From: a bacterium
GTDB taxonomy: Bacteria; SAR324; NAC60-12
Length of the DNA: 64,000 nucleotides
Direction of reading: 5' to 3'
NCBI GenBank assembly: GCA_965205865.1
Contig: CBDBHR010000030.1
Coordinates: 515,031 to 579,030, forward strand
The notes under the pieces were generated by a model. The model was not told where the DNA came from. It saw nothing but the letters and a program-made list of their open reading frames with translations, and did no database searches. The translations under genes and the position numbers were made by a program. Shown here one piece after another: positions 5,273 to 55,796 of the stretch (the first letter of the stretch is position 1; the number at the start of each line of letters is the position of its first letter).

Positions 5273-6400
<1,128 letters not shown>

Positions 6401-9500: not shown

Positions 9501-10070
9501 GCGCAAGGGGGTTTGATGGTTGAGCGGGAAAAGATCCACTATTTCCTCCCGTACGCTGTATTCTCCTCGTTCTTCCACCACATCCACCAGGATGTAACCC
9601 GCCTCTCCGATCCGCCTCAGTAGAAAAGGACGAGGAATGCTTTTTCCGCATTGCAATTCGAAGCAATTTCGCAAAAAAAGTGATTGGGGAATCATGCGCT
9701 GCATGAGGGCCATAGGGGTGGTGATCAACAACTGAACCTGTTTGTCATGCAAAGCTTTCAGCGCTTGAAAGCGACGGGAAACAATATCCCTGTGTGGCGA
9801 AAAATTGTCGTAAGGTAAGGTGTCCCAATGCGGAAAAAAATAAAGCCCTTCCCCTCCGGAGAAAAAATGAAGGTCTTCCTGAAGTTGTTCCGCCCTTTCA
9901 AACGAATCTGCAACCACAATGACCGGGCGACCATTGAAACGCGGCAACTGCGAAACGAGCAAGGATTTACTCGAACCTCGCAAACCTCCAAGATAGAGAT
10001 TTTGGCTCTGATTCGGGAGGTTGCTCAAAAACTTTTTGAGTGCGTCGTTCATACCTGAATCAAGAAACAA
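6531..10070 (-). CDS. mfd: Transcription-repair coupling factor.
   Basis: 1179 aa. UvrB-homology N-terminus, CarD/TRCF domain (LEEGDHVVHLDYGVGRY) and DEAD/DEAH helicase motifs (VCGDVGFGKTEIA, DEEQRFG). Confidence 0.9.
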   Translation of the reverse strand: MFLDSGMNDALKKFLSNLPNQSQNLYLGGLRGSSKSLLVSQLPRFNGRPVIVVADSFERAEQLQEDLHFFSGGEGLYFFPHWDTLPYDNFSPHRDIVSRRFQALKALHDKQVQLLITTPMALMQRMIPQSLFLRNCFELQCGKSIPRPFLLRRIGEAGYILVDVVEERGEYSVREEIVDLFPLNHQTPLRLEWEHESLSSIKVFDVQTQLSAGQPLESIAILPAQEILFSADIHSHAQEMLEQAQRQNPSAVLEQTCALLQQKQYFSGIESLLGLFYQNPSSLFDYWDPRSLLVLDEPWKIKEKSRAVYDEIFMEYELSRQQKHYALKPEQSYLSHQDVELAFKKFLTLNLFESSKSLNHVHPFYDCSFLDNHSLRTDGRKAHQDPHSSVAHAIRKIKSWQQDGATVLFTARNQTHADHLKELLADFRVEGNGQALKNEKPGWEDWLKNGFRLPRDCAESPILTGPLSCGFRMANDRGKIEFALLTEEEIFGEKFRKRRLNQSNIQQVMGNLEDLEEGDHVVHLDYGVGRYRGLEKINVTGQSSDFMVLTYAREEKVYIPVDRFHLVQKYINADGSPPRLNKLGEKAWTKAKSKVAKAVAEMSHDLVEIYAARNAKQGFCYAPDNHLMTEFELAFPFEETEDQSIVIREVKADMESAYPMDRLVCGDVGFGKTEIAIRAAFKAVADSKQVGVLVPTTILAQQHFVSFRNRMDGMPVTIEVLSRFRTPAEQRQIIKRLACGTVDVLIGTHRMLSADIEFKDLGLLVVDEEQRFGVRHKEKIKKFRAEIDVLTLSATPIPRTLYMSMLGIRDLSLIHSPPPDRLSIRTRFVKSNAHIIQEAVSREIRRNGQVFIVHNRVETIYEYASYLKQILPDVGIAIAHGQLSENELEKIMMRFIEGEYEVLVSTTIIESGLDIPRANTIIVNNAHQFGLSQLYQLRGRVGRSNLQAYAYLLVPADGILSQVAEERLKILQELNELGSGFKIASRDLELRGAGNLLGAAQSGHIASVGMELYTQMIDDAVKKLKKQKESFPLEAIKISFDAQCHIPETYVRNSGQRLGLYKKLAAVRDEEALRNLRDETENRFGHLPDPLIDLFKSTQARLLGQRFAFKTIEHRNNQLQVQILKTDKLNTEKLIEWLQQPQTPLRFVPENTLILNNIPNSMNHILDGLQRFEKLFVSP

Positions 10071-10548
10071 ACCGTTATTTCAGTGAGTGGAGTTCTGATG
10101 GAATAAAATGCGTAATGCCAATGATCTGATTCGAAGAGGAGGGCAGTTGTTTGCTTTGAAAGCGTAACATATTTCGCGAGGATGACATATAAATCAGGAT
10201 GCTCATATTATTGAAGATTTATGTCGAACTCAGATTAACATAAGATATATCCTGTTCCAATTAAAAAAACAATTCCTAATCCCACATCGTCCCTGCACCG
10301 ACAATTCGAGTGATCGACGCATGCCACTCTCCTCGTATTTTCTTCACGATTCTCCGGCATACTTGACAGAAGAGGCCACAAGGATTACTCTGAAAAGGAT
10401 CTTCGCATCCACCGATACAACAACATTGTAATCCCCGGATTCCCGCTTTCACGGGGATGATATTTTTGTTGTGAACTCGTTTGAGTAAACACAACGTTTT
10501 AAATGCAACTTCGTATAGAGTGCCATTACAAGCAGTAGATAGGACAAA

Positions 10549-12780
10549 ATGAGTTCTGAGCCACAAGCAGGTACATCCGCAGAGATTTCCTTCAAAAAGG
10601 GAAGTCTCCCAAAGGCGCAATCCAAAGTGGGAAAAAAGCTGAAAGATCCACTTTCCCGGCCTAAGACGATTCCGCTCCCATCCGATTGGAGCAAATGCGA
10701 CCCCGGTGAGCTCACGCACCCTTCGTTATATATCAACCGGGAATTGAGCTGGTGCCAATTCAATATGAGGGTATTGGATCAGGCATTCGACGCCAAACAT
10801 CCATTACTGGAGAGAGTTAAATTTTTTGCCATCGTCGCTTCCAACCTCGATGAATTTTTTATGATCCGCATTGCCACCTTGCTGCGCATCATCCGCTCCG
10901 ATCTGGAAAATATTACGCCCGACGGGTTGAGCACTACCGAAGCGTTTTGGGCTATTCATGAAGAAGTCGATAAAATGATGGCCAAACAGCGGGAATGCTG
11001 GAATTCTGTTTTGCGTCCTCTGTTGGCTGAAGAATCCATTGAAATCCTTGAGCCCTCGGAATACACGCCCGGAGTCCGCCAATACCTGGCAAATTACTTC
11101 AAAACGGAAATATTTCCGATTCTCACTCCGCTCGCCTTTGATCCCTCCCATCCCTTTCCGCACATTTCCAATCTCAGTCTAAATTTTGCAGTGGAAGTGC
11201 GTCATAACGAGCAAGTCAAATTCGCTCGGGTCAAGATCCCCCCCATCTTTCCCCGTTTTATTGCCCTTCCTGAGGAATTGAGTCGTAAATCAAAACGAGG
11301 AGCAGTTGGCAATCGCTTTGTCTTTGTGGAAGACGTGATAAAAATCAACATGAGTGCCTTGTTCCCCGAAACCCAAGTGGAAGCCATTTACCTTTTCCGG
11401 GTGATTCGAGACACGGACATCGAAATCCGGGAAGATGAAGCCTCGGATTTGCTGGAATCGGTGAGCGAAGGATTGAAACAGATTCGTTATGGCGAGATAT
11501 CCCGACTGGAAATCGAAGAAAAGATGCCACAGCGGATTTTGGAGATCCTCATCGAAAATTTTCATGTTCCTGAGAGCGCGATTACGGGGACCCAAGACCG
11601 TATGGGCTATGCGGATTGGATGACGTTGATGAAGATCAATCGTCCCCGTCTGAAAGATTCATTGCTGAAGCCCTTTGTCCTCTTTGATTCTATTGAAAGT
11701 CCTGATGCGATTTTTGAAAAAATCAAATATGAAGATTATTTTCTGCACCACCCTTATGATTCTTTCAGCGCGCTGGAAACTTTTTTGAAAGCGGCAGTGG
11801 ACGATCCCCAGGTGATTGCCATCAAGATGACCCTCTATCGCGTGGACGCCGATTCTCCCATCGTGGAATTGTTGACAAAAGCCCGTGAAATTGGAAAACA
11901 GGTAGCCGTTTTGGTAGAGTTGAAAGCGCGTTTTGATGAAGAAAGCAATATTTTGTGGGCGCAACGGATGGAGGCGGCCGGCGTGCACATGGTCTATGGG
12001 GTTTTGCGTCTCAAAACCCATTGCAAACTCTGCTTGATTGTTCGCAAGGAAGCCGAAGGCATCCGACGCTACGTCCACATCGGCACGGGAAATTACAATC
12101 AAGTCACCTCTCGAATCTACACGGATTTGGGGATATTTACTGCGCACCGGGGGATTGTGGAAGACGTCTCCCAGATCTTCAATTACCTGACAGGCTATTC
12201 AAACCAGAAGTCATTCAGAAATTTGCTGGTCTCTCCTGTCAGTTTTCGTTCCGGTATCATCGACCTCATCGAAAAGGAAACGGAGCGCGCCAAAGCGGGT
12301 CACTCGGCGCATCTCATTTTCAAAATCAATCAAATCACCGATCCCCCTGTCATCCAAACGCTCTACAAAGCCTCGCAGGCAGGCGTGAAGGTGGATTTGA
12401 TCGTCCGTGGAATTTGCTGTTTACGCCCCGCTATTGCCGGCATCAGCGACAACATTCGCGTCATATCCATCATCGGCCGGTTTTTAGAGCATTCGCGGAT
12501 TTTTTATTTCCACAACAAGGGGCAGGAAGAAATTTACATTGGCAGTGCCGATCTGATGGAACGCAACTTGGACAGACGGGTGGAAGTGGTCACTCCCATT
12601 TACAGCAGAAAAATCAAAAATTACTTGAAAACCCACGTCCTCGATATCATGCTGAAGGACAATCAACAGGCCAGTGAACTGCAGATCAACGGGGAATACA
12701 TCGATGTATCTCCTTCCAAGGCCACTCCCATCAGTACCCAAAAATATTTACTGGACTGGCACGGTTCCCGTCTCAATTGA
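10549..12780 (+). CDS. ppk: Polyphosphate kinase 1. The annotated start may be too far upstream (about 58-aa N-terminal extension relative to typical PPK1).
   Basis: PPK1 N-terminal signature YINRELSWCQFNMRVLDQA..NLDEFFMIRIA; PLD-like C-terminal domains. Confidence 0.85.
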   Translation: MSSEPQAGTSAEISFKKGSLPKAQSKVGKKLKDPLSRPKTIPLPSDWSKCDPGELTHPSLYINRELSWCQFNMRVLDQAFDAKHPLLERVKFFAIVASNLDEFFMIRIATLLRIIRSDLENITPDGLSTTEAFWAIHEEVDKMMAKQRECWNSVLRPLLAEESIEILEPSEYTPGVRQYLANYFKTEIFPILTPLAFDPSHPFPHISNLSLNFAVEVRHNEQVKFARVKIPPIFPRFIALPEELSRKSKRGAVGNRFVFVEDVIKINMSALFPETQVEAIYLFRVIRDTDIEIREDEASDLLESVSEGLKQIRYGEISRLEIEEKMPQRILEILIENFHVPESAITGTQDRMGYADWMTLMKINRPRLKDSLLKPFVLFDSIESPDAIFEKIKYEDYFLHHPYDSFSALETFLKAAVDDPQVIAIKMTLYRVDADSPIVELLTKAREIGKQVAVLVELKARFDEESNILWAQRMEAAGVHMVYGVLRLKTHCKLCLIVRKEAEGIRRYVHIGTGNYNQVTSRIYTDLGIFTAHRGIVEDVSQIFNYLTGYSNQKSFRNLLVSPVSFRSGIIDLIEKETERAKAGHSAHLIFKINQITDPPVIQTLYKASQAGVKVDLIVRGICCLRPAIAGISDNIRVISIIGRFLEHSRIFYFHNKGQEEIYIGSADLMERNLDRRVEVVTPIYSRKIKNYLKTHVLDIMLKDNQQASELQINGEYIDVSPSKATPISTQKYLLDWHGSRLN

Positions 12781-48209: not shown

Positions 48210-48382
48210 CTTTTGTTTTAATAGAGGTAATGGTATTTGGGGTCATATTGCTCGGTGTCTTCTCGACCGCAGAGAGAGATCTTCAAGGGTCCTCCGGAAA
48301 CCGGGATTTCAATGTTTCTCTCTCCTCAGGTTTCGCTGGCTTGGACCAAATAGTCAATTCATACGAAGTTGCGCATATAAAG

Positions 48383-48694
48383 AATCCCCCTCCCTTGGAG
48401 GGAGGGGCCAGCACGGGAAAATCCCCCTCCCCTGGAGGGAGGGGCCAGGGGAGGGGGACAGCAGCCCAAAGAATCCCCCTCCACGCCAAGAATCCCCCTC
48501 CACGCCAAGAATCCCCCTCCACGCCAAGAATCCCCCTCCCTTGAAGGGAGGGGCCAGCACGGGAAAATCCCCCTCCCCTGGAGGGAGGGGCCAGGGGAGG
48601 GGGACAGCAGCCCAAAGAATCCCCCTCCACGCCAAGAATCCCCCTCCACGCCAAGAATCCCCCTCCCCTGGAGGGAGGGGCCAGGGGAGGGGGC
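48383..48694. repeat. Nested tandem array of REP-like palindromic elements.
   Basis: Higher-order unit: two palindromic cores (89 bp in total) plus 3 copies of aatccccctccacgccaag, then the same 89 bp plus 2 such copies, then one terminal palindrome. The two 89-bp blocks differ by a single substitution. Confidence 0.9.
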
Positions 48695-48823: not shown

Positions 48824-50872
48824 ATGAGATTTCAACTGTATTTTCGTCTTGTACTGCTGCTTTTTTGTTATTTTCTGGGAGCATGTTTCGTCTTTTTTCT
48901 TTTTCGTCTCAACTTTTTGATTCGTTTTGGAGATTTACATGAAATTTCAGTTCATTATAAATGGGACCTGTTCGAGTCTTTTTGGATGGGCGCCCGTTTC
49001 GACGCCAAGGTGCTGGCCATCTCACTGGCGCCTCTCTTTGTTTTATGCGCCTTGAGTCTGCCTTTTCCCAAGGTGAGTCGGAATCTCATATTCTTTTGCT
49101 GGCCCTGGCTTGTTTTACAGTCTTTGCTGCTTTATTTCTTGCTTTTTATAGACCAGCTTTATTACGGTTATTTTCAAAACCATATCGATATTCGCATTTT
49201 TGGTTTTATGGAAGACGATACCCGGGCCTTGCTGGACACTTTCTGGCAGGAATACCCTGTATTGCCTGTTCTTTCCCTTTTGTTATTGCTGTCTGTTCTG
49301 ACGGGCTGGCTGCTTTGGAAATTGCATGCGCGCCTGCGAAACAGAAAAGCGCCCGCCTGTTTTTCGGGGTCGGCAGCCCGCATCTCTTTTGTGATTTTTA
49401 CTTTGCTTTTCGTCAGTTTGGCGGCGCGCGGTTCGCTTGGCGTCTTTCCGCTCGCAAACCAGGAACGTGGCATCTCGGATCACCAGTTTCTGAATTTATT
49501 GGCGTATAACGGCATTTTTAGTTTTTATGATGCCTTCCAGCACCGGATAGAGAATCGATTTTCCACGGACATGGCACCTGTTTTAGCCAGGTATGAACAC
49601 AAAGACCTCCGGGAAGCGCTGCGCAACTATTACCAGCTTGCCAGCCCTCAGGCTCCTTTTCGAAGGTATATGTTCCGCAAGTCGGAGACCGCCTTCAGTG
49701 CTCCGGATAGGAAGTACCACGTCATTCTGATCATCATGGAAAGCTGGAGCGGATATTATTTTCGTTGGCATAACCCGAGCTTTCACCTGTTGGGTCGTCT
49801 GGAGAAGCATTGGGATTCGTTGCTCCATTTCCCATACTTTTTTTCTGCGGAAAATGGCACTATTCTCGGTCTCGAAAGCCTTCTCATAAGAAATTCGGGG
49901 TCAATTTTATCACAGACAAAGTATGCTTCGCACAGCTTCGACACTGCCATCACGCGTCCATTCCTGAAGGCCGGTTATGAAACGCACTTTATCAGCAGTG
50001 GTAAACTGGCATGGCGTAATCTCGATTTATTTTTGCCAATGCAAGGTTTTGAGAAGCTCAGTGGCCAGGTAAAATTAGAATCCTTGCGCAAGGATGAGAA
50101 TGCGCAAAATAACGTCTGGGGTGTTTTTGACGGGTATATGTTTGATTTTATGCTGGAAACCCTGCGCCAGGCTGAGAAACCTCAATTTATGGTAGCCCTG
50201 AGCATTACTCACCATCCGCCTTATAGAACGCCGGACGAGTACCAGGCTTCAGCGCTGCAAATCCCTCCCGCCCTGAGCGCAAAGCTCAAGACTGATAAGG
50301 ACACGGCTCGACGCGCCTTCCTTTCCTTTCAATACGCCAATGACGCTTTGGGTTATTTCCTGGAGCAGATCGAGCAAAGCAACTTGGCGAAAGAGACGCT
50401 GGTCGTCATGACGGGCGACCACAATACCTGGGGTCTGTTGGATTACGATCAGGAGAATCTGCATTGGAAATATGCGGTCCCCCTTCTTTTTTACCTTCCT
50501 CCGGAATTAAAAGAGAAGGTCTCTTTTGCGGACCACCAGCGCTTTGGTTCCCACGACGATATCTTTCCCACTCTGATGGCTCTGCTCTTTCCCGAAGAGG
50601 AATTTCTGCAAACAGGTTACAATCTTCTTGCTCCCCAAAGGCCGCCAAGTTTTGCAGTGAATGCCGCCGGATGGGCTCTGGACCCGCAAGGAGCCGTTTC
50701 CCTGACGGGTCAGCCTTTGTTTTATAAATGGAGCAGTCCCCAACGCCAGAAGCTGGTCAAAAGCGCTCCCCGGCCTGAACTCATGGAATTGAGAAAGAGG
50801 GCGCAGGCTCGTAAGGTAATTATGAATTATGCGTTGCGCGCCGATATTTCAGGAGAACAGGCAGGAAAATAA
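48824..50872 (+). CDS. LTA-synthase/sulfatase-family membrane protein (phosphoglycerol- or phosphoethanolamine-transferase-like; alkaline-phosphatase superfamily).
   Basis: Five N-terminal TM helices followed by a sulfatase domain (VILIIMESWSG..; TGDHN). 682 aa. Confidence 0.7.
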   Translation: MRFQLYFRLVLLLFCYFLGACFVFFLFRLNFLIRFGDLHEISVHYKWDLFESFWMGARFDAKVLAISLAPLFVLCALSLPFPKVSRNLIFFCWPWLVLQSLLLYFLLFIDQLYYGYFQNHIDIRIFGFMEDDTRALLDTFWQEYPVLPVLSLLLLLSVLTGWLLWKLHARLRNRKAPACFSGSAARISFVIFTLLFVSLAARGSLGVFPLANQERGISDHQFLNLLAYNGIFSFYDAFQHRIENRFSTDMAPVLARYEHKDLREALRNYYQLASPQAPFRRYMFRKSETAFSAPDRKYHVILIIMESWSGYYFRWHNPSFHLLGRLEKHWDSLLHFPYFFSAENGTILGLESLLIRNSGSILSQTKYASHSFDTAITRPFLKAGYETHFISSGKLAWRNLDLFLPMQGFEKLSGQVKLESLRKDENAQNNVWGVFDGYMFDFMLETLRQAEKPQFMVALSITHHPPYRTPDEYQASALQIPPALSAKLKTDKDTARRAFLSFQYANDALGYFLEQIEQSNLAKETLVVMTGDHNTWGLLDYDQENLHWKYAVPLLFYLPPELKEKVSFADHQRFGSHDDIFPTLMALLFPEEEFLQTGYNLLAPQRPPSFAVNAAGWALDPQGAVSLTGQPLFYKWSSPQRQKLVKSAPRPELMELRKRAQARKVIMNYALRADISGEQAGK

Positions 50873-50961
50873 ATGAGGCTGGCACGGAAGGGGTTGAGGT
50901 GAATAAGGTCTCGGAAGGAGACCATGACTCAGTCCTATGTCTTTTCTAACAATTAAATTCA

Positions 50962-50996
50962 AATATGCAAGCCTGACCCCTTTTTTGACCCCTTTT
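50962..50996. repeat. Left inverted repeat (IR-L) bracketing the three-gene cassette.
   Basis: aatatgcaagcctgacccc is a perfect 19-bp reverse complement of 53331-53349. Followed by a duplicated tgacccc(t)ttt motif. Confidence 0.85.
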
Positions 50997-51278
50997 CTCC
51001 AAGAGAAGAAAACTGAAAGATGAAAATATCCCACTTTTACCTTGATTAGTCTTCCAAAATACGAAAAAATCATGAAAAATTGTCCTTTACTCCCAGATTT
51101 CCAGTTGTTATCGTTTTCAGTGATTTTCTTATGTTGATGATTTTCAGATATTGTCTAGATGTCATCATCCTCAATGATTTTTATTTTCCTAAAATGTCAC
51201 CTCTTCCGGGTCTTGTAGTATCCGGAGGTTAGGGAACATACGGAGCTTGAAACACAAGAAATTCGGAGGAAAAACCCC

Positions 51279-52049
51279 ATGCGTCCGCATCGCCGTTACA
51301 AAAACCCACCCATAGAAGAGGCGCTTTGTGAATTTCGCTTCAAACCGGGACGGGACTGGGACCTCTTCATTCCAGGTAAACTCCATTCCAAAATCGATGA
51401 GGAATATGGTGGTAAGCCACGGGAACAAAAAGTTGTCGAGTTGGGATTGGAAGCCCAGGGAGGCAAGCCTCCCAATCTGAGATATGGTGAAGCGTTGTCA
51501 ATTATCCAACTGGTCACGAAGGATGGCAAAAGGATAGTTGGGGTTGGACCCGACATACTCAACGTTCACATGCTGCGTCCCTATCAAAATCCTCTTGATC
51601 CTGAACGCAGTGGATGGGACGAGTTCAAACCCCGGATTTCAGAAGCGCTCGATGCATACTGGAAGGTGGCTAAGCCAATTGGTGTATGTAGGATTGGTAT
51701 TCGGTACATAAACAAAATCCTCATACCACAGAAAACGGTAGAGGTCGAGGAATATCTCAAGTGTGCTTTGCCGGTTGTAAGAGGATTGCCAGATCGCCGG
51801 AAGCACTTTGTGAGCCGTGTTGATTATGACTATGGAGACGGTATGCGTCTGGGTTTGTCTCAGCGATCGATCAAGGCCCCTCCGGATCACATGGGTTTTC
51901 TGCTTGATCTTGACGTCATTTGGGAGAACTCCAAATCGCTTGCGCAGGACAAAGCATTGGAAAAAGTAGGTGACTTGCGCACTCGTGAAAGAGAAGCATT
52001 CGAAACTGTCATCACGGATAAAGCCAGGGAACTCTTCGATGCCGATTGA
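51279..52049 (+). CDS. Uncharacterized protein, TIGR04255-family-like, first gene of the three-gene operon.
   Basis: 256 aa; GGAGG RBS 8 nt upstream. N-terminal Y..PPIEEALCEFRF pattern recalled as typical of TIGR04255 proteins (from memory, not searched). Confidence 0.55.
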   Translation: MRPHRRYKNPPIEEALCEFRFKPGRDWDLFIPGKLHSKIDEEYGGKPREQKVVELGLEAQGGKPPNLRYGEALSIIQLVTKDGKRIVGVGPDILNVHMLRPYQNPLDPERSGWDEFKPRISEALDAYWKVAKPIGVCRIGIRYINKILIPQKTVEVEEYLKCALPVVRGLPDRRKHFVSRVDYDYGDGMRLGLSQRSIKAPPDHMGFLLDLDVIWENSKSLAQDKALEKVGDLRTREREAFETVITDKARELFDAD

Positions 52050-52761
52050 AAAATACGTACCTGCGCGTTCCAGAACCTCGACCTTTGATTCGGACACATT
52101 CTTTAAGATGGACGAATCGGGAGTGGCCTATGCCTCCCCGCATTGGCTCACCGAGGGAAAGGAATCGTTTGCGGCTTCTTTAGACGCCGAGACACCGCAA
52201 AAAGCGATGGCGGATCTGTTCGAACTATTCCCTGAGCAAACGACAGTGGTCCCGGATAGTACTTTATGGGTTGCGCTTATTTTTCCTGTACTCGTGGATG
52301 CAGCCTGCTTCGAACCGGCAGTCTCGCAACAGGCGCCTGTTGAAGGTCGAGAACAAAAACTGCTTGCGGCCAAACTGTGGACGTCCTTTGAAGCCGACAC
52401 CCTTGAAGACGGAATGGAACATCCAGCCGAGCAGATTATTGGAAAGGCGTTGCGATCCGAGGAAGAACTGCGCGTTCTTGAATGGTTCAGGGCTTTTGCT
52501 TTGGATGCTGAACGGCCGAGCTTTGCGGCATCGGTTCTGCGTTGCCTGGGACGTCAAATGCATCCGGGGACGGATTCATGGCGTGTTGAACTCGTGCGTG
52601 ACGCGCTGGCCATGGATGATGTGGAGATCAGGGACGCAGCCGCACAAGCAGCTGAATCGTGGGGTGGCCGGGATCTGATCGAGGTTCTAACGTCTCATCG
52701 TGAGCCGGAACCTTGGCTTCGAGACTACATTCGGGACATCATTGATGACCTGAGGGAGTAG
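52039..52761 (+). CDS. Uncharacterized acidic protein (possible helical-repeat fold), second gene of the three-gene operon.
   Basis: ATG overlaps the upstream stop by 11 nt (translational coupling). 240 aa; no recognizable catalytic motif. Confidence 0.5.
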   Translation: MPIEKYVPARSRTSTFDSDTFFKMDESGVAYASPHWLTEGKESFAASLDAETPQKAMADLFELFPEQTTVVPDSTLWVALIFPVLVDAACFEPAVSQQAPVEGREQKLLAAKLWTSFEADTLEDGMEHPAEQIIGKALRSEEELRVLEWFRAFALDAERPSFAASVLRCLGRQMHPGTDSWRVELVRDALAMDDVEIRDAAAQAAESWGGRDLIEVLTSHREPEPWLRDYIRDIIDDLRE

Positions 52762-52764
52762 GGG

Positions 52765-53280
52765 ATGTTCCTGGCACGCAAGATTACACGCGCCAAGTGG
52801 CGCCCCAAGGAGGAATTGTCGGTGGAAGAAATTCCGGCCGATGCGGTGACTGTTGATCTGAGGACACAGGAAAACTCGTTGTCTTTCTGGCAGTGTAGCA
52901 TCGGGGAAGAGGCCGAAGTCGAAGAGGTGGCGCTGGCGATAGCCGCCGCAGGTGAACGTATCGATAAGCTCGACATCGTTTGGTTTTCCGATGACGAGCT
53001 GCGGGCTGACAGCCAACAGTGGAAAAAAACCGACGGACGAACACCCGTTGCAGAGTTGGTCAGGCGACATGTCGATGTGTATCGTCTCGACTACGTGCGC
53101 CTCGGAAAAGTCGCTTCTCGTATCGCTACTGCAATAAAAGAGAGCCGATTCCGGCGGCTATCGAAGAAGCGTGTTACAGATCTCCTTGCGACAGCAGTCG
53201 AACAAGAACGTGTCAAACTGGACGACCTTGATAGTCGTGTCCATACAGAGGTGCGTGAGTCGCTCGGGGTAGAGAGATGA
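52765..53280 (+). CDS. Uncharacterized protein, third gene of the three-gene operon.
   Basis: ATG 4 nt after the upstream stop, with a GGGAG RBS. 171 aa; no recognizable motif. Confidence 0.5.
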   Translation: MFLARKITRAKWRPKEELSVEEIPADAVTVDLRTQENSLSFWQCSIGEEAEVEEVALAIAAAGERIDKLDIVWFSDDELRADSQQWKKTDGRTPVAELVRRHVDVYRLDYVRLGKVASRIATAIKESRFRRLSKKRVTDLLATAVEQERVKLDDLDSRVHTEVRESLGVER

Positions 53281-53308
53281 TCCATGCACTGCTAATGGTT
53301 GTACGAAT

Positions 53309-53350
53309 TGAAATGGGGTCAGGCTGAAATGGGGTCAGGCTTGCATATTG
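53309..53350. repeat. Right inverted repeat (IR-R) of the cassette, with internal tandem duplication of gaaatggggtcaggct.
   Basis: ggggtcaggcttgcatatt (53331-53349) is a perfect reverse complement of IR-L. The 16-mer is duplicated at 53309-53324 and 53325-53340. Confidence 0.85.
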
Positions 53351-53532
53351 GTATTTGGGAATTGTCTCGAGTGCAGGAGTTCTTCAGCCAACCTTGGATC
53401 GACTCTCGTCTGGGTTTCCAAGGCAATGCGTTGTCGGCTCAACGAGGAAAGGTCTCTTTGATAATACTGAGCCTCCTCCTCTAAGAGCCCGCCCTTTTCC
53501 GTATAAAAGAGCGTCATCCTTCCTCATATATA

Positions 53533-53556
53533 AATATGCAAGCATGACCACATTTT
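53533..53556. repeat. Third, diverged copy of the IR sequence in IR-L orientation, just downstream of the wecA-like gene.
   Basis: aatatgcaagcatgaccacatttt vs IR-L aatatgcaagcctgacccctttt. Confidence 0.6.
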
Positions 53557-53572: not shown

Positions 53573-54697
53573 CTAATGTTGACGTCCCCGGAATCTTCTC
53601 GCCAGTCTTTTGGGGATTCGCAGAATAGGATGGCGACGCAGCAATGCCACTCGTCGGTAAACCATGAAGTATAGAATGAACTGCAACACGAATGCCAGCA
53701 TTGCCCATTCCCGGGTGTGTGGAATAAATACGGCGAAAACCAGACTGCTCATTGTTCCTCCCCAGAGCAGCACGCTGGTGATGGCATTGGCGAGCTTTTC
53801 GTTTTTCAGCGATTTTGCAATCTTGCGGGCATAGGTCCGGTAGACCAACATATGCAGGTGTACTTTATCCGGTCTGGTGGGTCGATGGCGCTTACGGATC
53901 GTTTTTCGAATAATCGAATGAACGATTTCCAGCAGCGGATATGCCAGGATCATGATGCTGACCCATTCCGATATTTCCGGATTTCGTACGGGAAGCATGA
54001 CCGCCAGGGCGCCAAGCAGGAAACCCGCGAAATAGGCTCCTCCATCTCCCAGAAAAATGTATCCCCAGGGAAAATTCACCAAGAGGAACCCCAACAGAAC
54101 TGCGACGATAATGGCCGCCAACAAGACCAATTCGTAATCATCCACCATATAGGCCACAACTCCGAACGCCGAAGCCATGATGATCACGGCTCCCGCGGCC
54201 AGGCCGTTAAAACCATCGATGACGTTGATGGCGTTAGTCAGACCGCTTATTGCGAGAGCGGTGAATACGAGTGAGACGAAATGCCGCTCGATGAGATCGT
54301 CGACCAGATAGACTTCCGTTTGGGTCACCGAGTATCCGGTCATCACGCAGAAAAGCAGACCCGAAATTATCGTTGCCAGCAGGCGCAAGACGACCGGCGC
54401 TCTTTTGGTCAAATCTTCCATCAGACCCGCAAGGAAAGCCGGGCTGCCACTCATGCCAAGCACGATCAACAGACTTTGCGTTGGTTGGGAAGTCGCCATC
54501 ACGACCATCCAGAATCCGACGAACAGGGTCAGCCCGCCGATCCTCGGTGTCGGCTTATCGTGAAACTTCTGGGGTCCCGTGAAGGTATCGAAGGTAAGAG
54601 AACCATGCCAGCGCTTGCTGAGCACGATCAGAACGCTGCCGAGTAAGGAGACAAAAAAACCGCTCGATAGCGGCCATAATTCTGAAAGAGCAAACAT
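53573..54697 (-). CDS. wecA: Undecaprenyl-phosphate N-acetylhexosamine-1-phosphate transferase (WecA/WbpL/MraY family, GT4 polyprenyl-phosphate transferase).
   Basis: Polytopic membrane protein with NAINVIDGFNGLAAG and other MraY/WecA motifs. 374 aa. Confidence 0.8.
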   Translation of the reverse strand: MFALSELWPLSSGFFVSLLGSVLIVLSKRWHGSLTFDTFTGPQKFHDKPTPRIGGLTLFVGFWMVVMATSQPTQSLLIVLGMSGSPAFLAGLMEDLTKRAPVVLRLLATIISGLLFCVMTGYSVTQTEVYLVDDLIERHFVSLVFTALAISGLTNAINVIDGFNGLAAGAVIIMASAFGVVAYMVDDYELVLLAAIIVAVLLGFLLVNFPWGYIFLGDGGAYFAGFLLGALAVMLPVRNPEISEWVSIMILAYPLLEIVHSIIRKTIRKRHRPTRPDKVHLHMLVYRTYARKIAKSLKNEKLANAITSVLLWGGTMSSLVFAVFIPHTREWAMLAFVLQFILYFMVYRRVALLRRHPILRIPKRLARRFRGRQH

Positions 54698-55238: not shown

Positions 55239-55796
55239 ATGTCTGAAGTCGAAATGCAGTACAGCAGCACAGAAAACTGGTACGCGCTCCGTATCCGTTC
55301 CAGGTTCGACCAATTGTCGGAAAGGGCGCTGAAGAACAAACGATTCGAGGTTTTCAATCCAACCTACCACGAATGGAGTCGACGCAAGGATCGTAAAAAA
55401 CTATTGAGAAAATCCATATTCAAGGAATACATGTTTTTACGAACCACCCTGACTGCGGAGATTCACCTGGAAGTATTGAAAACCTATGGAGTAATGCTAC
55501 TCTTGCAAAACCGTACCGGTCCGGTCCCGATCCCCGACAGTCAAATCGCCAACATACGCCTGCTCGAGCAGCACGTGGGACGCTGTTTCCACGCTCCGGA
55601 ATATGCGCAGGGGGATTGGGTCCGTATCCGTGATGGGGTTATGGAAGGTTTGGTTGGTCAAATTGATTGGATGAAAAAAAATCTATTACGCATCACAGTC
55701 AACGGCATTGCCGGATCGGTTGCCATCGAAGTCAATCCGCATCAGGTGGAACTGCTGGAAAAGGACCCGGTCTACAAGGCAGTGGTCAGTCACTAG
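55239..55796 (+). CDS. rfaH: NusG-paralog transcription antiterminator (RfaH/UpxY-like), leading the polysaccharide gene cluster.
   Basis: NusG N-terminal-domain signature (WYALRIRSRFDQ) and C-terminal KOW-like region (GDWVRIRDGVMEGLVGQI). Confidence 0.6.
   Translation: MSEVEMQYSSTENWYALRIRSRFDQLSERALKNKRFEVFNPTYHEWSRRKDRKKLLRKSIFKEYMFLRTTLTAEIHLEVLKTYGVMLLLQNRTGPVPIPDSQIANIRLLEQHVGRCFHAPEYAQGDWVRIRDGVMEGLVGQIDWMKKNLLRITVNGIAGSVAIEVNPHQVELLEKDPVYKAVVSH

Follow-up and report, generated by a model that had tools for sequence, protein, structure and literature searches.

A putative tripartite toxin-antitoxin-like module headed by a TIGR04255 gene, in a strain-variable slot bordered by the ends of an unrelated IS200-like repeat family

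Three tightly coupled genes lie within positions 50962-53350 of a 64-kb stretch of DNA from a SAR324 bacterium (contig CBDBHR010000030.1), referred to here as the window, the numbering of which is used throughout; labels from L001 to L152 denote related or repeat-bearing contigs and loci that were compared with it. Gene 1 (51279-52049, 256 aa), gene 2 (52039-52761 from its ATG, 240 aa) and gene 3 (52765-53280, 171 aa) all lie on the forward strand, the first two overlapping by 11 nt and the last two being separated by 3 nt, as described in an initial annotation made from the sequence alone. The ribosome-binding sites reported there correspond to Shine-Dalgarno-like sequences, GGAGG before gene 1 and GGGAG before gene 3. 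Upstream of gene 1 is an AT-rich leader (50981-51278, forward strand, 38% GC), common to the close relatives L001 and L002, in which neither a consensus sigma-70 promoter on the forward strand nor an Rfam match was found; the AT-rich flank remarked upon earlier is therefore real, the spacer 50873-51278 having a GC content of 38% against 51% for the window. The genes are bracketed by two copies of a 19-mer, AATATGCAAGCCTGACCCC: copy A (50962-50980, forward strand) and its exact reverse complement, copy B (53331-53349, reverse strand). This perfect inverted repeat is genuine; a third copy, C (53533-53551, forward strand, in the orientation of A and with two mismatches to AATATGCAAGCCTGACCCC), had been missed. 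The earlier finding is real and its functional guess reasonable, while an unrelated repeat family accounts for the inverted repeat; the operon itself is probably an uncharacterised representative of a large, modular group of conflict-type systems with three genes.

The organisation of the genes was compared across the closest 80 genomic matches, one genome per species, in which the window proteins were searched against all open reading frames (ORFs). These loci come from more than eight phyla, almost all of them from metagenome-assembled genomes (MAGs), and represent Latescibacterota, Chloroflexota (Caldilineaceae and Dehalococcoidia), Binatia, Gemmatimonadota, Rhodothermales, Spirochaetia, Thermodesulfobacteriota and Proteobacteria. 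The gene-neighbourhood analysis that had been recommended gave a clear outcome: a gene 2 homolog lies directly 5' of gene 3 in all 80 loci, and gene 1 directly 5' of the gene 2 homolog in 46 of them. The 11 nt overlap between genes 1 and 2 is conserved, as is, in 52 of the 80 loci, the 3 nt spacer between genes 2 and 3, which leaves these two genes in one frame with a stop and one codon between them (52759-52767 in the window). Programmed read-through of the gene 2 stop was considered on account of this shared frame; ordinary translational coupling is the simpler explanation, since the spacer codon is unconserved and all three stop codons occur, TAG accounting for 37 of the 51 cases in which a start codon was recognised.

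Beyond the module itself there is no conserved neighbourhood, as the 116 immediate neighbours represent 101 different Pfam families. The commonest of these is DNA methylase (seven cases), followed by the type III restriction domains ResIII and RE_endonuc. For example, in L013, L029 and L039 the module lies between type III Mod-like and Res-like genes, and in L026 it adjoins a phosphorothioate-dependent (PT-DNA) restriction endonuclease; PIN, NYN or UvrD-like genes are found beside it in some genomes. More distant relatives of gene 3, with 26-36% identity, retain the three-gene layout, and these trios are found in the accessory end of the Acinetobacter prophage Ab105-1phi, on a plasmid of the cyanobacterium Crinalium, in the metagenomic representatives L151 and L152, and on the 7.5-kb mobilisable Acinetobacter plasmid pYWS30-1-6, the remaining annotated genes of which comprise replication and mobilisation functions and two small hypotheticals. 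These distributions support treating the trio as a single accessory module, self-contained, horizontally mobile and made up of uncharacterised proteins.

Close homologs of all three genes, with 50-70% identity, are spread over more than eight phyla (L003-L082), and the names of the MAGs (Candidatus Palauibacter rhopaloidicola, which is one of the Gemmatimonadota, and bins labelled RHO, CAR and PNG) suggest sponge-associated communities. Recent transfer across phyla within one habitat is thereby implied, the habitat being read from names only. In one spirochaetial locus (L017, 1201-6665), methylase-like genes stand between gene 1 with a truncated gene 2 on one side and a short gene 2 with gene 3 on the other, an arrangement which suggests an insertion into the module.

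Gene 2 is itself composite. Its C-terminal portion of around 150 aa (52306-52761, residues ~90-240), a conserved alpha-helical HEAT-like domain and putative antitoxin or neutraliser, is present in every one of the 80 loci and, judged by this co-occurrence, is the obligate partner of gene 3. By contrast, the N-terminal ~90 aa (52039-52305) form a variable, putative adaptor segment that co-occurs with gene 1: homology to it was detected in 36 of the 46 loci with gene 1 and in only one of the 34 without. Mean column identity is 40% for gene 2 and 59-63% for genes 1 and 3; antitoxins are usually the least conserved component of such systems. The statement that genes 2 and 3 lack recognisable motifs stands for gene 3, which matches nothing in Pfam, NCBIfam or PADLOC, and needs amending for gene 2, where there is a weak similarity to HEAT_2. 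Homologs of gene 2 resemble HEAT_2 more strongly, with E values down to 4.7e-5, and several carry a precomputed PF13646 match.

Three groups can be distinguished among the loci that lack gene 1. In the first, a short gene 2 (142-180 aa) has no upstream partner, which constitutes a minimal two-gene module. The second group possesses a longer gene 2 following an unrelated first gene of 225-280 aa, termed c5, and the third, consisting of the Spirochaetia loci L044, L057 and L066, has the conserved domain of gene 2 fused to the helix-turn-helix (HTH) domain HTH_17, fusion to a DNA-binding domain being the classic layout of an antitoxin. The possibility that c5 is a hidden TIGR04255 protein was ruled out using hhalign, and the first genes of the Acinetobacter trios were likewise excluded by profile comparison. 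Gene 1 is, on this comparative evidence, an exchangeable first component of the module.

The assignment of gene 1 to TIGR04255 made in the initial annotation is secure, scoring 123 bits where the cut-off is 30 (E 1.8e-35) over profile positions 1-251 of 252; no Pfam match was found. The predicted model of the protein (predicted local distance difference test, pLDDT, 85) has its best structural matches among guanidino kinases, specifically the catalytic domain of phosphagen and protein-arginine kinases. TIGR04255 also heads trios that have other third genes: on the Vibrio parahaemolyticus plasmid CP063527 this is a Zeta_toxin, and in a P2-like Ralstonia phage an unrelated 146-aa protein. In addition, a TIGR04255 gene lies beside VapBC and CRISPR genes on Thermus pTB1. 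A literature search on the family (IPR026349, CHP04255) returned no paper.

Gene 3 matches phrog_10743, a functionally unassigned family of phage proteins, and has hundreds of relatives of ~170 aa; clustering the family at 50% identity gave 2,386 clusters at E <= 1e-3 and 1,455 at E <= 1e-10. No NCBIfam match was obtained for gene 3, and neither it nor 46 diverse relatives matched RES, DarT or any other ADP-ribosyltransferase (ART) model in Pfam. Its structure is predicted with confidence (pLDDT 92, predicted template modelling score 0.85), and a Foldseek search of the model against the PDB gave no significant match; among the best structural matches are Tpt1/KptA RNA 2'-phosphotransferases, with ART-fold host-targeting effectors also represented. 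Only R5, W12, S40, W42 and H102 are invariant across the diverse relatives. In the model, strand 1 carries R5 and strand 2 S-x-S40, while the strand 5 position has the invariant H102 and a partly conserved D104 but no glutamate. This predicted geometry recalls the R-S-E arrangement, and gene 3 bears a weak resemblance to ART-fold toxins. An ART-like, NAD-using enzyme is accordingly a likely identity for gene 3 in the modelled structure, although not an established one, because the invariant residues recall R-S-E without matching it. Sequence searches of the PDB with all three proteins, as single sequences and as profiles, returned nothing. The database searches recommended earlier thus yielded TIGR04255 for gene 1 and, from PADLOC, nothing for any of the three: in PADLOC-DB v2.0.0, a defence catalogue extending up to 2023, the window proteins had no match at E up to 1, and 47 gene 3 relatives produced one chance-level match.

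The interpretation to which we give most weight, with a probability of roughly 0.55, is that the three ORFs constitute one horizontally mobile tripartite toxin-antitoxin (TA)-like module, probably of abortive-infection or defence type. It draws on the obligate pairing of a fast-evolving upstream protein with a well-conserved, small downstream protein that is a putative enzyme, and on the HTH fusions, the carriage on plasmids and prophages, the patchy strain-level presence described below, the restriction-modification neighbours and the zeta-toxin analogue; linkage and translational coupling of the genes, exchange of the first gene and the fold similarities likewise argue for it. The initial suggestion of a mobile defence, toxin-immunity or accessory cassette is in keeping with this, as the architecture and genomic associations are those of TA or defence systems.

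In the proposed mechanism, gene 3 would be the toxic effector, a small ART-like enzyme predicted either to modify a target, cellular or viral, by means of NAD+ or to destroy NAD+. The C-terminal HEAT-like helical domain of gene 2 would act as its cognate neutraliser, and the N-terminal ~90 residues as an adaptor specific to the upstream gene. Gene 1 would be an exchangeable third component docking on this adaptor, and may act as a sensor or regulator that times the release of gene 3, a role analogous to that of the chaperone in toxin-antitoxin-chaperone systems.

A number of observations count against such a system. The HEAT_2 similarity of the window gene 2 (E 0.0015, 19.2 bits) is under the Pfam cut-off of 27.7, and a Pfam search revealed no DNA-binding domain in this protein. 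The R5/S40/H102 combination departs from both catalytic patterns, R-S-E as well as H-Y-E. Genes 1 and 3 retain 60-70% identity across phyla, which could fit a cellular function, and housekeeping genes make up most of the module's neighbours, the enrichment for defence islands being modest and based on a raw count without a control.

The 19-mer that borders the operon has a separate history. Allowing up to three mismatches, the window contains three copies, compared with 0.01 expected by chance. The A/B inverted repeat can be extended to 30 nt with 90% complementarity (50955-50984 and 53327-53356), and B and C pair as inverted repeats over 31 nt at 84%. The duplicated TGACCCC motif noted initially at both arms is also real. 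On the left it takes the form CCTGACCCCTTTTTTGACCCC, a second TGACCCCTTTT unit following directly after copy A, the CCCC tip of which is directed rightward, to the operon; on the right it is a perfect tandem duplication of 2 x 16 nt, TGAAATGGGGTCAGGC (53309-53340, forward strand), which spans the tip of copy B and is single-copy in L002. Iterated TGACCCCATTG units are found directly outside the 19-mer tip in L132 (about 5880-5977) and L143 (627-720), which the tip duplications of the window (50974-50996 and 53309-53340) resemble on a smaller scale.

Rather than being specific to this cassette, the exact 19-mer recurs in 58 contigs, as 73 copies, in an exact-match scan of Joint Genome Institute (JGI) metagenomes, with otherwise unrelated flanks; none was found in the viral collection. 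This comes close to the recurrent repetitive extragenic palindromic (REP) sequence that the initial annotation had named as a counter-explanation. When the copies are aligned, conservation continues on the AATATGC side only and ends directly after ...TGACCCC, so that CCCC is the outer tip of the repeated unit. An IS200-like Y1 transposase gene, whole or fragmentary, adjoins the 19-mer in 12 of the 58 contigs, and the two complete transposase copies tested also have a DnaA_C-type HTH. Complete elements of 1,008-1,009 bp, with a single gene encoding Y1_Tnp and Bac_DnaA_C domains, are present in L100 (131-1139), L114 (3816-4823) and L128 (489-1497), and read GGGGTCAGGC(T/A)TGCATATT, transposase, AATATGCAAGCCTGACCCC. 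In these autonomous copies, GGGGTCAGG...CCTGACCCC, the tips are directed outward, as they are in short inverted doublets in L092, L095, L117, L133 and L139; others contain solo units or arrays in the same orientation. The GGGG/CCCC tips are thus outward in 3/3 complete elements and 5/5 miniature doublets, but inward around the operon. Because the tips of A and B are directed at the operon, it lies between element ends and outside any element.

The B-C pair, on the other hand, has the orientation seen in L100, L114, L128 and the five doublets, and forms a 221-bp miniature element (53331-53551) resembling a miniature inverted-repeat transposable element (MITE) or a doublet of REP sequences (REPIN), with GGGG...CCAC tips outward and a 183-bp spacer. 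The 19-mer therefore forms the termini of a family of IS200-like Y1-transposase elements unrelated to the operon, copy A being a solo end of this IS200-like/REPIN-like family and copy B pairing with C as a miniature element. The earlier concept of a unit bounded by the inverted repeat and carrying the operon is not supported: the 19-mer is a terminus of an unrelated Y1 element, its tips point inward and B has its partner in C. Nor is the arrangement kept in relatives, since none of the 79 other operon loci has a flanking inverted repeat above chance, the longest inverted match being 12 nt as against 16 nt in mismatched control pairs. No Y1 transposase of this family was found in the window or in related contigs, and the sequences outside A and B, ...TTAAATTCA and GGTATTTGG..., share no direct repeat that would represent a target-site duplication. 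A, B and C mark the borders of a slot and are not the operon's own termini, the family having colonised a strain-variable intergenic hotspot. If this reading is right, a perfect inverted repeat around a cassette can arise from the ends of unrelated small transposable elements, which calls for caution in scans for such structures.

Other explanations for the repeats were considered and set aside. A terminator or non-coding RNA was rejected as terminator-like sites were not above background and an Rfam match was absent. The B-C pair might have been an invertible promoter beside the UpxY-headed locus described below; its spacer is without a promoter-like site, and this possibility was rejected because the B-C segment borders directly on the 3' ends of the genes on either side and matches the transposable element family. 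With regard to an integron-like cassette array, no integrase was recognised in the ORFs examined near 19-mer copies, and no attC-type GTTRRRY core was evident beside the copies by eye, neither feature having been searched for systematically. One further instance of cargo between inward-facing 19-mers, the only other found, is a 5-kb segment in L111 (2246-7299, identical to L120 1919-6972) encoding two repeat-rich proteins of 781 and 736 aa; Fic-like and AbiEii/AbiEi-like ORFs lie just outside it, as identified by eye only.

The slot occupied by the operon lies between genes for a membrane sulfatase or lipoteichoic acid (LTA)-synthase-like protein (48824-50872, forward strand, 682 aa) and a WecA-like glycosyltransferase family 4 protein (53573-54697, reverse strand, 374 aa), and proteins at least 90% identical to these two are encoded on about 20 related contigs. 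In the window and in L001 the slot contains the three-gene operon and copies A, B and C, and in L002 the operon with a 1.8-kb AT-rich block in place of copy C. The comparison with relatives lacking the operon that had been proposed showed L083, L084, L085 and L086 to differ in slot content. In L083, exactly the operon's slot, between diverged copies of A and B, is filled by a three-gene cassette on the other strand (10390-11784, minus), encoding proteins of 141 aa, 211 aa with HipA_C, and 90 aa, and copy C and two copies of a different miniature element are also present. L084 has no cassette and only copy C; L085 has other cargo, as does L086, which has kept, with copy B, a 3'-terminal remnant of gene 3. 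The operon is consequently present or absent among strains that are >95% identical, and the slot is a strain-variable hotspot; its position beside a surface-polysaccharide locus agrees with the initial annotation.

Compared with L083, the window loses homology no more than about 5 nt from the tips of A and B; compared with L084, homology restarts at 53346, a junction 4 nt inside copy B at the end farthest from the operon. Cargo boundaries that match the repeat tips within about 5 nt in two strains are a caveat to this account of the repeats, and may mean that the tips are recombination-active, for instance through a Y1 transposase acting in trans; a role for the repeat in cassette exchange is given a small probability.

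Several other features of this region also vary. The AT-rich block, of ~1.3-1.8 kb, contains small ORFs and is 97-99% identical between L002 (6750-8574), where it replaces the DNA of copy C, L085 (10628-12014) and L086 (about 10951-12600); one of its ORFs has DKKFDVI-type tandem repeats. The second, unrelated miniature element is ~220-270 bp long with ends AACCTGAGTT(C/T)GA..., and occurs at 10052-10270 and 12182-12455 in L083, as two inverted copies flanking the hotspot, and once in L084 (9052-9270); its terminal 35 nt are found in the window at about 10202-10236. To the left of the hotspot, between SprT-like and sulfatase-like genes, the window has a tandem repeat array (48380-48666) with periods of 19 and 146 nt and copies that are 99-100% identical, and this spacer is strain-variable, harbouring a GIY-YIG ORF in L084 and a 204-aa ORF in L086. 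To the right, a UpxY/NusG-like antiterminator heads the polysaccharide locus (55239-55796 and downstream), in which the genes after Wzz vary among L083, L084, L085 and the window, such that this locus is variable too.

The strong conservation of genes 1 and 3 across phyla could also be explained if the trio were a cellular protein- or RNA-modification pathway, in which a kinase-like gene 1 and an NAD-dependent gene 3 were joined by gene 2 as a scaffold, and which had spread by horizontal transfer owing to its usefulness in a shared habitat. The mostly housekeeping neighbours and the absence of PADLOC matches suit this account, as do the enzyme-like fold of gene 1, the Tpt1/KptA similarity of gene 3 and the concentration of close homologs in MAGs of a few co-occurring lineages. 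Such a pathway would not, however, be expected to come and go among nearly identical strains, to travel on a small plasmid otherwise devoted to replication and mobilisation or in the accessory ends of prophages, or to have its first gene freely swapped; the pairing of TIGR04255 with a zeta toxin, the antitoxin-like HTH fusions and the recurrent type III restriction-modification neighbours make it unlikely. The same sponge-symbiont-type lineages, which contribute almost all of the closest 80 matches, with identities of 50-70% across phyla, together with the ART-fold host-targeting effectors among the structural matches of gene 3, could instead indicate a symbiosis factor, consisting of an eukaryote-like HEAT-repeat protein and an effector that ADP-ribosylates a target in the animal host. 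This is very improbable: neither a signal peptide nor linkage to a secretion system was seen in the sequences or neighbourhoods, the same architecture is found in an Acinetobacter prophage, on Acinetobacter plasmids, of which one came from a soil isolate, and on a cyanobacterial plasmid, and coupling in an operon with a small partner is typical of intracellular TA pairs. Moreover, the habitat of the MAGs is again taken from their names only.

A further alternative concerns the repeats. Mobile insertion cassettes of the MIC231 type carry passenger genes between inverted insertion sequence (IS) ends and lack a transposase, and the segment from A to B (50962-53349) could be such a non-autonomous cassette, with the 19-mers as its own terminal inverted repeats and the transposase elsewhere. 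A perfect 19-bp inverted repeat is far beyond chance, a family of Y1 transposases does occur in association with the 19-mer, and different, HipA-like cargo lies between diverged copies of both repeats in L083; the L083 and L084 boundaries fall close to the tips, and the cargo of L111 is held between copies in the same +...- arrangement. Nevertheless, the inward tips contrast with those of every transposase-bearing element and doublet, and as conservation in the family extends away from the tip, the body of copy A lies to the left and that of copy B to the right. Copy B also has its own partner 183 bp away, and neither a target-site duplication outside A and B, nor a Y1 transposase in the window or related loci, nor an inverted repeat above chance at the other operon loci was detected, leaving this alternative decidedly improbable.

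The TA-like module and the behaviour of the repeats may be combined into a broader reading, which we consider possible but rather doubtful. TIGR04255 would be a general exchangeable sensor or controller for many TA pairs, acting through an N-terminal extension of the antitoxin, and the Y1-repeat tips would provide a docking site for the exchange of cassettes between strains. The pairs seen with TIGR04255 so far involve the ART-like gene 3 family, zeta toxins and others, and this third component would be functionally parallel to SecB in toxin-antitoxin-chaperone systems; the kinase-like fold modelled for TIGR04255 proteins might even mean enzymatic action on the antitoxin. If the tripartite TA-like interpretation is true, the locus gives a first functional context for TIGR04255, a curated family without a function, and also for the large gene 3 family, for which there is no Pfam model. 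It would also define a combinatorial architecture, in which a variable first gene, an adaptor joined to a HEAT-like neutraliser and an ART-like effector are brought together, that is directly testable, and the strain-variable hotspot adjoining a surface-polysaccharide locus is documented alongside it.

Comparison with known systems separates the repeats from the genes. For the 19-mer, the relevant comparison is with REPINs and their REP-associated tyrosine transposases (RAYTs) and with IS200/IS605-family elements (PMC3116915, PMC3337134, PMC5581495). As in REPIN/RAYT systems, inverted copies of a short repeat lie on either side of a Y1 (HUH) IS200-like transposase gene, and there are non-autonomous inverted doublets with short spacers and solo copies in intergenic DNA. 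Unlike them, a single 19-mer has no hairpin palindrome, not being self-complementary by inspection, and the transposase has a DnaA_C-type HTH. It is also unusual, REPs being lineage-specific, for the exact 19-mer to recur over 58 contigs drawn from many metagenomes, with flanks that are unrelated. The operon genes resemble the contents of a mobile insertion cassette or cargo-carrying MITE in lying between inverted copies of an IS end without a transposase, but compared with the autonomous element these ends are turned round, so that their tips face inward, no target-site duplication is present, and one arm is part of a separate miniature element.

Turning to the genes, adjacent, co-directional, coupled and co-occurring small genes are the generic hallmark of type II TA systems, and genes 2 and 3 have this arrangement. 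Like the Xre-RES systems (ParST, MbcTA and NatRT) and DarTG, the antitoxin-like gene precedes the toxin-like one, and some versions of gene 2 share an N-terminal HTH with Xre antitoxins; in contrast to these systems, there is no RES or DarT match in Pfam, R5/S40/H102 are not RES or DarT motifs, the putative antitoxin is a HEAT-like solenoid rather than an Xre protein or macrodomain, and a third gene is usual. Three overlapping genes are likewise found in omega-epsilon-zeta operons and in the TIGR04255-X-zeta trio of Vibrio CP063527, but there the third gene encodes a P-loop zeta kinase and not a gene 3 homolog, and the middle gene of the Vibrio trio is unrelated to gene 2 by profile comparison.

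The closest mechanistic analogue of the trio appears to be the toxin-antitoxin-chaperone (TAC) class, as exemplified by CmdTAC. This comprises the ADP-ribosyltransferase toxin CmdT, the antitoxin CmdA and the SecB-like chaperone CmdC, which senses a phage capsid protein, loss of the chaperone freeing the toxin (PMC11618068, PMC6377645). Membership of the TAC class fails, since gene 1 is not SecB-like, instead being a TIGR04255 protein with guanidino-kinase structural matches, and the extension of the putative antitoxin is N-terminal, whereas that of TAC antitoxins is C-terminal (ChAD). The gene order of the trio, accessory-antitoxin-toxin, also differs, and PADLOC showed no similarity, CmdT, CmdA and CmdC having been compared by description. 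What the two have in common is a set of three small co-transcribed genes found on mobile elements, a putative ART-fold toxin, and an additional antitoxin segment, the presence of which is correlated with that of a third protein that some relatives dispense with.

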